From the NCBI RefSeq assembly GCF_003334305.1, contig NZ_QOWS01000007.1: a stretch of DNA of 64,000 nt. The stretch is one strand, 5' to 3'. The position numbers were made by a program, and so were the translations under genes. Source of the stretch: Escherichia coli. GTDB taxonomy: Bacteria; Pseudomonadota; Gammaproteobacteria; Enterobacterales; Enterobacteriaceae. This document shows, piece after piece, positions 25,506-52,835 of this stretch; position 1 is the first letter of the stretch, and every line of letters starts with the position of its first letter. The notes beneath the pieces are model-generated. The model did no database searches. It was not told the origin of the DNA and saw only the letters and a list, made by a program, of their open reading frames with translations.

Positions 25506-25880
<375 letters not shown>

Positions 25881-25904: not shown

Positions 25905-27239
25905 TCATTCCTTGAAATCGTTTGCATCCAGCTCGTGTCGGGAAAGCAGTTTATAAAATTCTGTCCGGTTGCGCCCCGCCATTCTCGCCGCGTGGGTGAC
26001 GTTGCCTTTGGTAATTTGCAGCAGCTTACGCAAATAGTTGAGTTCAAACTGATTACGTGCCTCAACAAAGGTTGGCAGCGCCGTGTTTTCACCCTCCAGC
26101 GCCTGCTCTACTAATGCATCGCTAATAACCGGAGATGAGGTCAGCGCCACGCACTGTTCAATCACGTTGACCAACTGGCGCACATTACCCGGCCAGCTAG
26201 CGGTCATCAGGCGTTTCATCGCATCAGTGGAGAACGCGCGGACAAACGGTTTATGTCGCTCTGCCGCCTGGCGCAACAGGTGATTTGCCAGAAGCGGAAT
26301 GTCTTCTGTGCGCTCTGCCAGAGCCGGAATTTTCAGGCTGACAACGTTGAGGCGGTAATAGAGATCTTCACGGAATTCCCCGCGCGCCATCGCTTTTGGC
26401 AGGTCGCGGTGAGTGGCGGAAATAATCCGCACGTCGATATCAATATCGCGGTTGCTGCCCAGCGGGCGCACTTTACGCTCCTGCAACACGCGCAGCAGTT
26501 TGACCTGCAATGGTGCGGGCATATCGCCAATCTCATCGAGAAATAGCGTACCGCCTTCCGCCGCCTGGAATAAACCTTCGCGATTGCTGACAGCGCCAGT
26601 AAACGCGCCACGCGCATGACCAAACAGCTCCGACTCCAGCAACTGCTCGGGCAATGCGCCACAGTTAATAGCAATAAATGGTTTGCTGTTACGCGGGCTG
26701 GCGTTGTGGATAGCCTGGGCGAAAATCTCTTTCCCGGTGCCGCTCTGGCCATTAATCAACACGCTGACGTCTGATTGCGCCACCAGCCGCGCCTGTTCCA
26801 GCAAACGCAGCATCAGCGGGCTGCGGGTGACAATTGCCTCGCGCCAGCGTTCATCGGTGGCTGGCGCGGATTGCTCCAGCGCATCGTCAATTGCCTGATA
26901 TAGCGCGTCTTTGTCGACAGGCTTGGTGAGGAAACTAAAAACGCCCTGCTGTGTTGCAGCAACGGCATCGGGGATAGAACCATGCGCAGTAAGAATAATT
27001 ACCGGCATTCCCGGCTGCACTTTCTGGATTTCAGCAAACAGCTGCATACCGTCCATTTCATCCATCCGCAGGTCGCTGATAACTAAATCTACTTTTTCGC
27101 GATTCAGTACCCGTAATCCTTCAGCGCCACTTTCCGCCGTGACCACACTGTAGCCTTCGCTGGTCAGGCGCAGGCCAAGCAGTTTCAGCAATCCCGGATC
27201 GTCATCGACCAATAATAAATGCGCAGGTTTATGGCTCAT
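25905..27239 (-). CDS. glrR: Sigma-54-dependent response regulator GlrR (YfhA), 444 aa
   Basis: ORF track 25905..27341; start set to ATG 27237-27239 ([14 protein letters not shown]...); receiver, AAA+ (GESGTGKE) and HTH domains. Confidence 0.9.
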
Positions 27240-27942
27240 CAGGAGTGACCTCATGGGTGGATGGCGCGGGCTTTTCACCCTCGTGCGGCGTATCCGGCGA
27301 GAAATTTCCAGCCGGTTTGCGGGTCGAGAGCTGGCGTTCAATATCAGTCAGGTTTTCCAGCTTGCGGGTGGTGAGTTCCAGTTGCTGCTGTAGAACGTGA
27401 TGTTGCTGGCGCAATGTATCCAGCTCGCTGTCGCTGGCCTGCTGGAGCTTGCCGTAGCGTTGGCGCTCTTCCGCCAGTTGCAGTTGCAGCGCCTGACCGT
27501 CGCGCCAGAGTTGATACAGAGGGCGAACCTGTGCCGGGATCTCGGTACTTAGCGCATCAATGCGCGCGACCAGCTGGCGGCGCTCATACGGCGTAATTTT
27601 GGCGTCGGCGAGCAAAATCCCTTGTTTAAAGGTATTTTGCCAGCTGCCGTCGTCATATTGGCGAGCTTGCTGACGTGACTGCGCAGGCATTAAACGATCA
27701 GCACAATCCATCGCCCGCAGCCAGTAAAGCGGATTGGTTTCGGTTGATTTACCTTGCAGCGCCCAGATGTCGCTACATTCAGTAGAAAGATAGTCAGCCA
27801 GTTGATAAACCGGAATTTTTTCTTCTGCTGGCGTATCAATGGCTGGCTTATTGTGACTCTGCACGCAACCCAGCAATGCCAGACATGGCAGCCCTGCCAG
27901 CCACAGCCGTCGGGGCAATAATCGTTGAAAAATGTGTCGCAT
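27229..27942 (-). CDS. qseG: Lipoprotein QseG (YfhG), 237 aa
   Basis: ORF track 27229..27948; lipobox LLGC in signal peptide; overlaps glrR start by about 11 nt. Confidence 0.8.
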   Translation of the reverse strand: MRHIFQRLLPRRLWLAGLPCLALLGCVQSHNKPAIDTPAEEKIPVYQLADYLSTECSDIWALQGKSTETNPLYWLRAMDCADRLMPAQSRQQARQYDDGSWQNTFKQGILLADAKITPYERRQLVARIDALSTEIPAQVRPLYQLWRDGQALQLQLAEERQRYGKLQQASDSELDTLRQQHHVLQQQLELTTRKLENLTDIERQLSTRKPAGNFSPDTPHEGEKPAPSTHEVTPDEP

Positions 27943-28106: not shown

Positions 28107-29534
28107 TTATTTCGTGTTTTTCGACGACGGCAATTCAATGCGGAAACAAACGTCTTGCCCGCTCTCGTCGACCAGATACAGTTCCCCTTGCATACGGCGA
28201 ATACAATCCCTGGCAATGCTTAATCCCAGACCGCTGCCCTTCACCGCCCCTTTTCGCTGGTGGCTTCCTTGAAAAAAGGGTTCGAAGATCATGGCGCGTT
28301 CCTCTTGCGGAATGGGTGTGCCTGTATTGATGACATCAATATAAACCCGTGCACCATGTAAGCTGCTGCGAAGGCAAATGTTACCGGATTCAGCCCCGTA
28401 GTGCACCGCATTGGAGTAAAGATTATCCAGTACGCTCATCAGCAGCATTGGCTCCGCCAGGCAAGCTGTTGCTTTGAGATCGACGTCGGTATGCATCATT
28501 TTAGCCCGTGCGGGCAGGCTATGAGCAGAAACCACTGTCTCCACCAGCGGTGCTAATTCAACATTCTCCAGTTCCACCGCACTGTCCGCCTGTTTACGGT
28601 TGTAATCAAGCAGTTGTTCGATCAGTTTTTGCAAATTGCGGCTGCTGCTATCAAGAATGCTCACCACCTCTTTTTGCTCTGGCGTAAGCGGCCCGACAAC
28701 CTGGTCAGCCAGTAATTCAGTGCCCTCGCGCATACTCGCCAGTGGCGTTTTTAATTCATGAGATAAATGTCTTAAAAATTGATGGCGTTGGGATTCCAGC
28801 CATGACAGGCGCTCACTTAACCAAAGAATACGTTGCCCAACCGAGCGTAACTCGCTCGGTCCACTGAACGAAACGCTATTGCCCAGAGAACGCCCTTCCC
28901 CCAGACGGTTGATCATGCGCTCGATATTTTTCACCGGCCCGATAATCATCCGCGTGAAAAGTAGCACCATCACCAGACTCACCAGAAATAGCACCAGCGA
29001 TTGCCAACCAAAATATTGCCCACGTTCGGCGATTTCACGCTGAAGTTGCTGCCCACGAGAGAACACCACTGTGCGCGTGGCCTGCACCATTTCGGTATTG
29101 GCACTGGCAAAGGCTTCAAGACGCGCGGCGGCGGCAGCATCGGGACCACTGTTGTTACACTGAAGTTGGGCCAGATTGTTCAAATCCTGACGCAATGCCT
29201 GGTAAAGTTTATCGTCTGGCAGTACGCCTGCGTGGGCATCGAGCATTTCGCTGTAACGCTTGCGCTGGCTTTGATAAACCTTCGCAAGCGTAGGATCGTC
29301 CAGCACGCAATACTGACGGTAGCTACGCTCCATCTCCAGCGCCGCGTTGGTCATCGCTTCACTACGCCGGGCATCAATAAGCGTAGTGCGGTTAACCAGC
29401 GCCGCCTGATCGCTAAGCGCATTCAGGCTTTGCCAGGCTTGCCATGCCAGCACCAACAGGGGTAGTAGAATTAGCAAAAATGCCAGCATTACCAGTTGTC
29501 GTAATGAGCGGGGAAAAACAGGCCAGCGTTTCAA
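28107..29534 (-). CDS. glrK: Sensor histidine kinase GlrK (YfhK), 475 aa, probable TTG start
   Basis: ORF track 28107..29597; remembered protein begins MKRWPVFPRSL, which in this sequence corresponds to a TTG start at 29532-29534; HisKA and ATPase motifs present. Confidence 0.8.
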   Translation of the reverse strand: MKRWPVFPRSLRQLVMLAFLLILLPLLVLAWQAWQSLNALSDQAALVNRTTLIDARRSEAMTNAALEMERSYRQYCVLDDPTLAKVYQSQRKRYSEMLDAHAGVLPDDKLYQALRQDLNNLAQLQCNNSGPDAAAAARLEAFASANTEMVQATRTVVFSRGQQLQREIAERGQYFGWQSLVLFLVSLVMVLLFTRMIIGPVKNIERMINRLGEGRSLGNSVSFSGPSELRSVGQRILWLSERLSWLESQRHQFLRHLSHELKTPLASMREGTELLADQVVGPLTPEQKEVVSILDSSSRNLQKLIEQLLDYNRKQADSAVELENVELAPLVETVVSAHSLPARAKMMHTDVDLKATACLAEPMLLMSVLDNLYSNAVHYGAESGNICLRSSLHGARVYIDVINTGTPIPQEERAMIFEPFFQGSHQRKGAVKGSGLGLSIARDCIRRMQGELYLVDESGQDVCFRIELPSSKNTK

Positions 29535-29592
29535 GGTGTTACTCTCGTCAGACGCGAATAGCCTGATGCTAACCGAGGGGAAGTTCAGATAC

Positions 29593-29776
29593 AACAAAGC
29601 CGGGAATTACCCGGCTTTGTTATGGAATAAGGCGGTGCCTAACTCGACGTTTCGCCCGATGGTTGATATAGCTACGCTGATATCAGAAGTTGGACGGCAG
29701 GCACCTTGTTGTGCGTCATTCGAATTTTATGTAGCACGTCCCGAAGGGGCTGACATAAGTCGGTGAATGAGCCACT
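29593..29776 (-). ncRNA. glmY: Small RNA GlmY, about 184 nt
   Basis: Minus-strand sequence AGTGGCTCATTCACCGACTTATGTCAGCCCCTTCGGGACGTGC...AAAGCCGGGTAATTCCCGGCTTTGTTGT matches remembered GlmY, ending in a terminator hairpin directly upstream of glrK. Confidence 0.85.
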
Positions 29777-29786
29777 GCTTACTATT

Positions 29787-29804
29787 ATGCAGTAACTGTG
29801 CCAA
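29787..29804 (-). promoter_or_regulatory. Sigma-54 (-24/-12) promoter of glmY
   Basis: Minus-strand TGGCACagttacTGCAT with GG and GC spaced as in -24/-12 consensus, positioned just upstream of the GlmY 5-prime end. Confidence 0.8.
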
Positions 29805-29892
29805 TAAAGAAAATAGTTTGGTAACGTACTGATTATACGTCGCTTTGAGGGGTTTATGGCTTCTCCGTTATTTGAATGTAAATCAGCCACTG

Positions 29893-29910
29893 TGTCGCTA
29901 AAAAGAGACA
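29893..29910 (-). promoter_or_regulatory. GlrR binding site 1 (TGTC-N10-GACA)
   Basis: tgtcgctaaaaagagaca. Confidence 0.75.
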
Positions 29911-29955
29911 ACTTAAGATAAACTTATTAGATAATATTAAAATCAATGAGTTAAG

Positions 29956-29973
29956 TGTCGCCAGAAAGCGACA
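29956..29973 (-). promoter_or_regulatory. GlrR binding site 2 (TGTC-N10-GACA)
   Basis: tgtcgccagaaagcgaca. Confidence 0.75.
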
Positions 29974-29988
29974 CGGTAAACCACCCAT

Positions 29989-30006
29989 TGTCGTGATTTA
30001 CAGACA
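29989..30006 (-). promoter_or_regulatory. GlrR binding site 3 (TGTC-N10-GACA)
   Basis: tgtcgtgatttacagaca. Confidence 0.75.
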
Positions 30007-30007
30007 C

Positions 30008-30032
30008 AAAAAAGCTCCCGGAGTTGGGAGCT
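30008..30032 (-). terminator. Rho-independent terminator of purL
   Basis: Hairpin agctccc-ggagtt-gggagct followed on the minus strand by TTTTTT. Confidence 0.75.
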
Positions 30033-30053
30033 TATGATAGTGGTTGGTGCTTA

Positions 30054-30086
30054 ATGCCGGATGCGGCGTAAATGCCGCATCCGGGC
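30054..30086. repeat. REP-like palindromic element downstream of purL
   Basis: gccggatgcggcgtaaatgccgcatccgggc, REP-type palindrome. Confidence 0.7.
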
Positions 30087-30109
30087 TGCAAAACCAATGA
30101 ACTGATGAC

Positions 30110-33100
30110 TTACCCCAACTGCTTACGCGCATTGCGGAAAATGCGCATCCATGGGCCATCCTCGCCCCAGTTTTCCGGATGCCAGGAGTTGCTGACAGTA
30201 CGGAAAACACGTTCCGGGTGCGGCATCATAATGGTGACTCGACCACTTTCAGTCGTAATCGACGTAATACCGTTCGGTGAACCGTTCGGGTTAGCCGGGT
30301 AGGTTTCAGTGACTTTGCCGAAGTTATCGACATAGCGCAGTGCCACCAGCCCTTTGCTTTCCAGTGCCGCCAGATGCGCCGCATCACGCACTTCCACGCG
30401 CCCTTCACCATGAGAGACAGCAATCGGCATTTGCGAGCCCACCATCCCCTGCAACAGCAGCGACGGGCTTTGGGTCACTTCAACCAGGCTGAAACGCGCT
30501 TCAAAGCGATCGGAGGTATTGCGCACAAAACGTGGCCACAACTCACTACCTGGGATCAGTTCGCGCAGGTTAGACATCATCTGGCAACCGTTACATACCC
30601 CCAGCGCCAGCGTTTGCGGACGGTGGAAGAAGGTTGCAAACTCATCGCGTACACGGTCATTGAACAGGATTGACTTCGCCCAACCTTCACCGGCACCCAG
30701 CACATCACCGTAGGAGAAACCACCGCACGCGACCAGGGCGTGGAAATCTTCCAGGCCCGTGCGTCCAGTCAGCAGGTCACTCATATGCACATCGATTGCA
30801 TCGAAGCCTGCACGGTGGAAAGCTGCCGCCATTTCAACATGCGAGTTCACGCCCTGCTCACGCAGCACAGCAACTTTCGGACGTGCGCCAGTGGCAATAT
30901 ACGGTGCTGCCACATCTTCGTTGATATCGAACGACAGTTTCACATTCAGGCCCGGATCGGCGTCGTTTGATTTCGCCTGGTGCTCCTGGTCAGCACACTC
31001 CGGGTTGTCACGCAGGCGCTGCATCTGCCAGGTAGTTTCTGCCCACCAGACACGCAACGTGGTGCGGCTTTCGCTGAATACAGTCTGCCCGTTGGCGGTA
31101 ATCACAAAACGGTCACCGGAAACCGCCTGCCCTACATAATGGACACAATCAGCAAGCCCATGCTGTGCCAGTACGGACTCGACCGCTTCACGGTCAGCGG
31201 CACGAACCTGAATCACCGCACCCAGTTCTTCGTTAAACAACGCCGCCAGGCGATCGTCGCCCAGAGAGGCAATATCCGCGTTAATGCCGCAATGACCAGC
31301 AAAGGCCATTTCCGCCAGCGTTACCAGCAGGCCGCCATCAGAGCGGTCGTGGTATGCGAGCAGCTTACGCTGTGCAACCAGCGCCTGAATCGAGTCATAG
31401 AAGCCTTTCAGTTGCGCGACATCGCGTACATCTGCCGGTTTGTCGCCAAGCTGACGATAAACCTGCGCCAGCGCCGTTGCGCCCAGCGCGTTATTGCCTT
31501 TGCCCAAATCAATCAGCAGCAGTGCGTTATCTTCGGTAGAAAGCTGCGGCGTGATGGTGTGACGTACATCTTCCACGCGGGCAAATGCAGAAATCACCAG
31601 CGACAGCGGCGACGTCATTTCGCGCTCTTCGTTACCTTCCTGCCAGCGGGTTTTCATCGACATAGAGTCTTTACCCACCGGGATCGTCAGGCCCAGCGCC
31701 GGACAAAGCTCTTCGCCCACGGCTTTAACGGCTTCATACAGGCCCGCATCTTCACCAGGGTGGCCTGCCGCCGCCATCCAGTTGGCGGAAAGTTTAATGC
31801 GTTTGATATCGCCAATCTGTGTTGCGGCAATATTGGTTAACGCTTCACCGACCGCCAGACGGGCAGAGGCGGCGAAATCCAGCAGCGCAACCGGCGCACG
31901 CTCGCCAATCGCCATCGCTTCACCGTAGTAGCTGTCGAGGCTGGCGGTAGTGACCGCGCAGTTAGCGACCGGCACCTGCCACGGACCCACCATCTGATCG
32001 CGCGCTACCATGCCAGTTACGCTGCGGTCACCGATGGTCACCAGGAAAGTTTTCTCCGCCACGGTCGGCAGATGCAGTACGCGTTTCACCGCGTCTGCAA
32101 TGGTGATCCCTTCACGGACCAGCGCATCGCCCTTCGCTTTCAGCGTTTGTACATCGCGGGTCATCTTCGGCGTTTTACCAAGCAGGACGTCCAGCGGCAG
32201 ATCGATCGGCTGATTATCAAAATGACGATCGTGCAGAGAAAGATGCAGTTCTTCGGTCGCTTCACCAATCACCGCGTAGGGTGCGCGCTCACGCTTACAC
32301 AGTTCGTCAAACAGCGGTAATTGATCGGCAGCAACCGCCAGCACGTAGCGTTCCTGGGATTCGTTACACCAGATTTCCAGCGGGCTCATGCCCGGTTCGT
32401 CGCTTAGAATATCGCGCAGTTCAAATTTACCGCCGCGTCCGCCGTCGCTCACCAGCTCCGGCATCGCGTTAGAAAGACCGCCCGCACCGACGTCGTGGAT
32501 AAACAGAATTGGGTTAGCATCACCAAGCTGCCAGCAACGGTCGATCACTTCCTGGCAACGACGCTCCATCTCCGGGTTGTCGCGCTGTACGGAAGCAAAG
32601 TCGAGGTCGGCATCAGACTGACCTGACGCCATGGAAGACGCCGCTCCGCCGCCAAGACCGATGTTCATTGCCGGGCCGCCGAGAACGACCAGCTTCGCAC
32701 CGACGTTGATCTCGCCTTTTTGTACGTGATCGGCGCGAATGTTGCCGATCCCGCCCGCCAGCATGATCGGTTTGTGATAACCGCGCAGCTCTTCGCCGTT
32801 GTGGCTGTTCACTTTTTCTTCATAAGTACGGAAGTAGCCATTCAGTGCCGGACGACCAAATTCGTTGTTAAACGCCGCGCCGCCCAGCGGGCCTTCGGTC
32901 ATGATGTCCAGCGCGGTGACAATGCGCTCAGGCTTACCGAAATCTTCTTCCCACGGCTGTTCGAAGCCAGGAATTCGCAGGTTGGAAACGGAGAAACCAA
33001 CCAAACCCGCTTTCGGCTTCGCGCCGCGCCCGGTGGCACCTTCATCGCGGATTTCACCGCCGGAACCGGTCGCCGCGCCCGGCCACGGAGAAATCGCCGT

Positions 33101-52736: not shown

Positions 52737-52835
52737 GCCTGATGCGCTACGCTTATCAGGCCTACGTGGCTCATGCAATATATTGAATTTGCACGATCTT
52801 GTAGGCCGGATAAGGCGTTCACGCCGCATCCGGCA
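52737..52835. repeat. BIME (two inverted REP units) downstream of srmB
   Basis: gcctgatgcgctacgcttatcaggcctac ... gtaggccggataaggcgttcacgccgcatccggca. Confidence 0.8.

Follow-up and report, generated by a model that had tools for sequence, protein, structure and literature searches.

GlmY, GlrK and GlrR control glucosamine-6-phosphate synthase and, through it, the supply of cell-envelope precursors, and in pathogens they control virulence genes as well. The GlmY/GlrKR circuit was worked out experimentally in Escherichia coli K-12 between about 2008 and 2020. GlmY is a small RNA that is processed from 184 nt to 148 nt (PMC4152352) and serves as a RapZ decoy that protects a second small RNA, GlmZ (PMC4152352, PMC7073468). 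GlmZ (SraJ) belongs to the same Rfam clan and adopts a similar two-domain fold. Its target for base-pairing is glmS; GlmY has no such complementarity, its role being that of the RapZ decoy (PMC4152352). In many Enterobacteriaceae, glmZ is preceded by a sigma-54 promoter, a set of three GlrR sites and IHF sites resembling those of glmY; in E. coli, unlike glmY, it has a sigma-70 promoter only (PMC3045617).

For glmY, the sigma-54 promoter has been characterised experimentally in E. coli, and transcription of the gene in K-12 depends on rpoN, glrR and ihf (PMC3045617). Gel-shift assays (EMSA) and mutagenesis showed that GlrR binds its upstream sites, two of which are essential for sigma-54 activity and one of which is dispensable (PMC3045617). 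Two IHF-like sites flank the activator site ABS3, and mutation of the distal one abolishes sigma-54 promoter activity (PMC3045617). The other reported sigma-54 promoter activated by QseF/GlrR is rpoE P2, which has similar upstream sites (PMC6075780).

Identity of the locus

The DNA analysed here, a stretch of 64 kb referred to as the window, almost certainly contains the E. coli glmY locus, comprising the sRNA gene, its sigma-54 promoter and three GlrR (QseF) sites. The window is assigned to E. coli because every one of the 5426 complete E. coli genomes carries the 621-bp glmY region (5426/5426). It is always chromosomal and in nearly all of them occupies a single place (median 1, maximum 2 places per genome), and several strains carry it with 100% identity. 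Read along the minus strand, the end of purL is followed by a REP-like palindrome, a hairpin terminator with a T-tract, three further palindromes, an AT-rich stretch, TGGCACAGTTACTGCAT and AGTGGCTCATTCACC. This is exactly the published architecture (PMC3045617, PMC6075780). An earlier note on this DNA had pointed out GlmY, the sigma-54 element, the GlrR sites, glrK and the purL terminator, and every element was found as stated. Its reading of the region as the known GlmY/GlrKR circuit is borne out by the Rfam match, the identity to K-12, the conservation described below and both of these papers.

The same 184-nt ncRNA lies between glrK and purL in K-12 MG1655 (glmY, b4441; formerly tke1/sroF). 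K-12 and the window are identical in every regulatory motif: the sigma-54 element, the CATAAT box, the two IHF-like sites and the three GlrR sites. Between 29480 and 30160 the two sequences differ by twelve substitutions: a single one falls within the RNA (29723), another at -2 (29778), and none of the others touches a regulatory motif. There is also an indel, in that K-12 lacks 18 bp of the REP-like element that follows purL. This indel is the probable reason for the identity of only 95-99% that most E. coli genomes show over the 621-bp region.

A close match to the window, a locus in NZ_CP019953.1, differs from it at 13 of 10,621 aligned positions. Its RefSeq/PGAP annotation shows the purL-qseE interval without a glmY ncRNA feature, while the K-12 record has one. 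Automated annotation can thus leave glmY unmarked. Elsewhere in the window, Rfam also matched the iscRS stability element (285-394), the OhsC sRNA (38974-39050), the rncO leader (42462-42676), AsrC, an antisense of rseC (45460-46291), and ES036 (52758-52800), all of which are expected in this part of the E. coli chromosome.

The GlmY RNA

Full-length GlmY is encoded on the minus strand at 29593-29776 and is recognised by its identity to K-12 b4441, its fold and its homologues. The 5' end of the RNA is AGTGGCTCATTCACC, with +1 at 29776, 11 nt past TGGCACAGTTACTGCAT. The earlier note had proposed a covariance-model search, and the outcome was positive: the Rfam family RF00128 (GlmY_tke1) matched 29629-29776 on the minus strand with 147.1 bits (E = 7.5e-34), against a gathering score of 33. 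The match spans the whole model (positions 1-163 of 163) and was recovered in a scan of the whole window with Rfam as well. It delimits the GlmY core with its two stem-loop domains and covers exactly the first 148 nt of the RNA, the same length as the published processed active form. The last 36 nt carry the terminator.

The 184-nt RNA folds with a free energy of -64.2 kcal/mol and a z-score of -5.5 relative to shuffled sequences, forming the two GlmY stem-loop domains and a terminator hairpin. In the minimum free energy structure the intrinsic terminator (29593-29621, minus strand) is a 12-bp hairpin formed by ACAAAGCCGGGT and CCCGGCTTTGTT, followed by a U-rich tail. Its stem covaries in relatives, with GCCGGG/CCCGGC in some and GGCAGAG/CTCTGCC in others. 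A generic terminator scan of 29450-30150 missed this hairpin, clear as it is in the fold, since the T-run is taken up into the maximal stem. The helices of the GlmY core hardly vary across 24 genera and show only five compensatory pairs; with a sequence so nearly invariant, the covariation term of RNAalifold for 24 homologues is almost nil (-0.23). Support for the structure hence comes chiefly from the Rfam model, not from newly found covariation.

Homologues were sought in 80 loci of Enterobacteriaceae, one genome per species, retrieved with the GlrK protein only. This makes the set of loci independent of the RNA and the promoter. GlrK identity among them ranges from 77% to 99%. Of the 80, 79 have a GlmY homologue directly upstream of glrK, and its first nucleotide is the same; the contig of the 80th is truncated.

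GlmY and its base-pairing paralogue GlmZ share one Rfam clan (CL00011) and a common structure (PMC4152352), and a resemblance of this kind could in principle make a GlmZ gene, or a GlmY/GlmZ-like pseudogene, pass for functional GlmY. The likelihood of such a mistake here is negligible. Within the clan, GlmY is the best-scoring family, at 147 bits over the full model. The RNA of the window is identical to K-12 glmY b4441 at 183 of 184 positions, the single substitution being that at 29723, and this identity led us to reject GlmZ. Moreover, purL and glrK are the flanks expected from glmY synteny (PMC6075780), and E. coli glmZ, with its sigma-70 promoter, is without GlrR sites (PMC3045617).

The sigma-54 promoter

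Upstream of GlmY lies the sigma-54 promoter TGGCAC-N6-TGCAT (TGGCACAGTTACTGCAT; 29787-29803, minus strand), which the earlier note had already read as a -24/-12 element and which corresponds to the promoter described in PMC3045617. It places GG at -26/-25 and GC at -14/-13, 12 nt apart, and ends 11 nt before +1. The pattern TGGCAC-N6-TGC[AT] has this single match in the 64 kb. For a comparison across species, as that note had also suggested, the window and the 77 loci with at least 270 nt upstream (78 sequences) were aligned with MAFFT, and conservation was expressed as column identity to the window. TGGCA[CT]-N6-TGCA begins at -27 in 78/78 sequences. Mean identity is 0.96 for TGGCAC and 1.00 for TGCAT, and it is likewise 1.00 for the first 10 nt of GlmY.

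A weak sigma-70 promoter overlaps the sigma-54 promoter and uses the same start site (PMC3045617). Its -10 box, CATAAT (29784-29789, minus strand), shares bases with the -12 element, and its conservation over the 78 loci is 80-100%; the position of the box is read from the sequence and its function from PMC3045617. A generic sigma-70 scan of 29450-30150 called no full -35/-10 promoter. This fits a weak promoter, and the overlapping sigma-70 element is accordingly taken from the literature. A perfect TATAAT is also present at 29832-29837 on the minus strand (-61 to -56), where it overlaps the proximal IHF-like site. The generic scan called no matching -35 for it, and the stretch is poorly conserved.

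GlrR and IHF sites

The motif TGTC-N10-GACA occurs exactly three times in the 64 kb. The three copies, at 29893, 29956 and 29989, lie within 114 bp of one another. Dinucleotide shuffles give a mean of 0.73 matches per whole window, so three in a region of about 240 bp are far beyond chance. The proximal site, TGTCTCTTTTTAGCGACA (29893-29910), extends from -134 to -117; the middle site, TGTCGCTTTCTGGCGACA (29956-29973), from -197 to -180; and the distal site, TGTCTGTAAATCACGACA (29989-30006), from -230 to -213. The middle site is probably ABS2 of the published promoter. Judging from the text of PMC3045617 on the flanking IHF-like sites, the proximal site is probably ABS3, and the same text makes the distal site probably the dispensable ABS1. 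The earlier note was right about the three palindromes and their positions but had called them regularly spaced, and on this second point it does not hold. Their centres are 33 and 63 bp apart, which comes to roughly three and six turns of the helix, so that the sites are in helical phase without being evenly spaced.

Each palindrome specifies only eight bases, and chance alone would give roughly 0.7 matches per 64 kb. Together with the -10 box that overlaps the promoter and the basal expression that persists without GlrR (PMC3045617), this could suggest that the three are chance matches or sites of another regulator and that glmY is essentially driven by sigma-70. We give this view almost no weight. 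All the matches that the window has, three in number, fall inside 114 bp, their half-sites are phylogenetic footprints at fixed positions across the 78 loci, and GlrR binding, with two essential sites, was demonstrated by EMSA and mutagenesis (PMC3045617). On the grounds of conservation and literature, chance palindromes and another regulator were both rejected.

The footprints of these GlrR sites stand out. Nearly all of the 78 sequences have exact or one-mismatch copies of TGTC-N10-GACA at -230, -197 and -134, give or take 2-3 nt. The arms of the distal site have a mean identity of 0.99 around a spacer of 0.58, and those of the middle site 0.97-0.99 around a spacer of 0.44. At the proximal site the right arm reaches 0.96 and the left arm 0.80. 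For comparison, the N10 spacers range from 0.44 to 0.61, the sequence between elements from 0.36 to 0.48 and the flanks from 0.30 to 0.36, with 0.30 for the upstream flank (-270 to -231). These column identities form a clear phylogenetic footprint of the promoter and the GlrR half-sites, and the palindromes and the -24/-12 element proposed in the earlier note thus recur across the family.

At the proximal site it is the left arm that is weakly conserved. Only about 20% of the 78 loci keep the C of its TGTC, and outside Escherichia most genera have one mismatch there. The perfect third palindrome of E. coli is therefore the exception. Escherichia albertii (L006:1485-1768) departs further. Each of its three GlrR sites has GACG in place of the final GACA, the proximal one has two mismatches, and neither IHF site matches the consensus, yet its GlmY is still 97% identical; an insertion of about 0.8 kb separates purL from the GlrR sites. 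Given the weak left arm of the proximal site and the GACG ends of E. albertii, the natural consensus is looser than the strict TGTC-N10-GACA of E. coli. In Escherichia sp. MOD1-EC7003 (L047:1485-1768), a 22-bp insertion splits the distal site (TGTCT-TTGACTGCTCCCCGCCCAATCG-GTAAATTACGACA), with the other two GlrR sites and the promoter intact. This arrangement fits the report of one dispensable site, which is probably the distal one.

Seven matches to the IHF consensus WATCARNNNNTTR occur in the window, and two of them lie in the glmY promoter region, where they flank the proximal GlrR site. Neither had been listed in the earlier note, nor had the overlapping sigma-70 -10 box or the weak promoter in front of glrK. 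The promoter-proximal site is AATCAGTACGTTA (29822-29834, minus strand; -58 to -46) and the distal one is AATCAATGAGTTA (29941-29953, plus strand; -177 to -165). Over the 78 loci their mean conservation is 0.68 and 0.84, respectively, against 0.36-0.48 for neighbouring sequence. By their sequence, the two are conserved candidate IHF sites in the enhancer-promoter region and agree with the published IHF-like regions. From the description in PMC3045617, 29941-29953 is probably the essential IHF site 1.

The window also contains rpoE, on the minus strand with its start at 48466. Three copies of the looser pattern TGT-N12-ACA, out of 18 in the whole window, lie in the 600 bp upstream of this gene, between 48793 and 49057. 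Unlike the glmY sites, none of the three fits the strict TGTC-N10-GACA, though one comes within a single mismatch of it. A simple regular expression found no sigma-54 element at rpoE P2.

A model of glmY activation

The steps of binding, activation, processing and decoy action are drawn from PMC3045617, PMC6075780, PMC4152352 and PMC7073468, and they can be laid onto the elements of the window. The kinase GlrK/QseE, with the lipoprotein QseG, would phosphorylate GlrR (QseF), and GlrR~P would bind the enhancer formed by the three TGTC-N10-GACA sites (-230, -197 and -134). IHF, bound on either side of the proximal GlrR site, would bend the DNA and bring the activator into contact with the sigma-54 RNA polymerase held at TGGCAC-N6-TGCAT, and this contact would start transcription from 29776. 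The 184-nt transcript is predicted to end at its own hairpin terminator and would then be trimmed to 148 nt. Processed GlmY would mimic GlmZ and titrate RapZ, the RNase E adaptor. GlmZ would thereby be protected from RNase E and translation of glmS activated.

The end of purL

Beyond the distal GlrR site lies purL, whose stop codon is at 30110-30112 on the minus strand. A terminator scan identified its intrinsic terminator at 30005-30033 (minus strand), consisting of an 8-bp hairpin (30012-30033) and a T-tract, and in E. coli this T-tract reaches into the TGTC arm of the distal site. A REP-like palindrome (GCCCGGATGCGGCATTTACGCCGCATCCGGC) sits between the stop codon and the terminator, at about 30056-30086. 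The earlier note had described the third GlrR site as abutting the purL terminator, which is true of E. coli, and had gone on to treat purL read-through and glmY activation as sharing one compact region. The latter is an over-reading, as the abutment varies by lineage.

A finder of perfect-stem terminators proved too strict for comparing species: it called 25 of 76 loci, and many of the loci scored as having no terminator visibly have a hairpin and a T-run. The distance from the purL stop to the distal site was used in its place. Over 72 loci this gap has a median of 70 nt and extends from 14 to 1020 nt. A hairpin with a T-run abuts the distal site in some genera. In Citrobacter and Salmonella an abutting terminator is mostly not obvious, and in E. 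albertii and one other genome an insertion of 0.8-1 kb separates purL from the distal site. At the other extreme are five species (L042, L063, L067, L072 and L077), among them Pseudescherichia vulneris and 'Escherichia sp. ESNIH1', in which the purL stop comes within 14-17 nt of the distal site. Such a gap leaves no room for a terminator, and in these species purL transcription would therefore have to enter the glmY enhancer region.

Could the purL terminator and the distal GlrR site nevertheless form a functional unit, in which purL read-through modulates the enhancer or adds glmY transcripts? The overlap of the T-tract with the TGTC arm would suit such an arrangement, as would the five species into whose 14-17 nt no terminator fits. 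We consider it improbable, however. The gap differs by lineage over its whole range from 14 to 1020 nt, and the abutting hairpin and T-run are present or absent by genus; the juxtaposition is thus not a conserved functional unit. The distal site is also probably the dispensable one in E. coli (by our assignment from PMC3045617), and the E. coli purL terminator is canonical, with a hairpin and then a run of six T. The sequence comparison of the 72 loci gave no evidence of functional coupling between purL and glmY.

A more specific proposal is that purL transcription into or through the glmY enhancer might disturb its occupancy by GlrR and IHF, or might yield purL-glmY co-transcripts that are processed to GlmY. 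We regard it as slightly less probable still than a functional unit, and in the terminator-less species such interference or co-transcription keeps a small probability. If it were true, purL transcription through the enhancer would link purine biosynthesis to the control of cell-envelope precursors.

The glrK-qseG-glrR-glnB genes

Downstream of glmY, on the same minus strand, are glrK (qseE; 28107-29534), a sensor histidine kinase gene with a TTG start; qseG (27229-27942), for a lipoprotein; glrR (qseF; 25905-27239), for a sigma-54-dependent response regulator; and glnB (25506-25844), for a P-II protein. Three of the four were matched by NCBIfam equivalogs: qseG by NF007997 (357 bits, cut-off 234), glrR by NF011695 (982 bits, cut-off 763) and glnB by NF008111 (243 bits, cut-off 202). 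GlrK has only generic histidine-kinase matches in NCBIfam, all below their cut-offs, and its name therefore follows the RefSeq annotation of NZ_CP019953.1 and that of K-12 (b2556). The RefSeq gene order in NZ_CP019953.1 is purL, qseE (GlrK), qseG, glrR, glnB. Together with the equivalogs it confirms the glrK-qseG-glrR-glnB cluster that the earlier note had placed next to glmY.

The spacer between the glmY terminator and glrK is where that note had put it. Its length is 58 nt (29535-29592, minus strand), the 59 nt given before being the difference between the coordinates. It holds the weak sigma-70 promoter of qseEGF (PMC6075780), at which transcription begins 25 bp upstream of the start codon, here at about 29559. 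This promoter is separate, and read-through from glmY is reported to be negligible (PMC6075780). From the sequence, TAGCAT at 29566-29571 may be its -10 box.

Concluding remarks

The identity, position and conservation of these sequence elements are established here, and the layout of the glmY locus is as already published. The reading is correct but ordinary and contains nothing new. Its worth is that of a sanity check, in that a textbook sRNA locus with an enhancer-dependent promoter can be recognised from raw sequence. The cis elements are all there, as is the activator gene, each of them in its proper place and under purifying selection, and the allele of the present strain leaves the established picture of GlmY and GlrKR unchanged.
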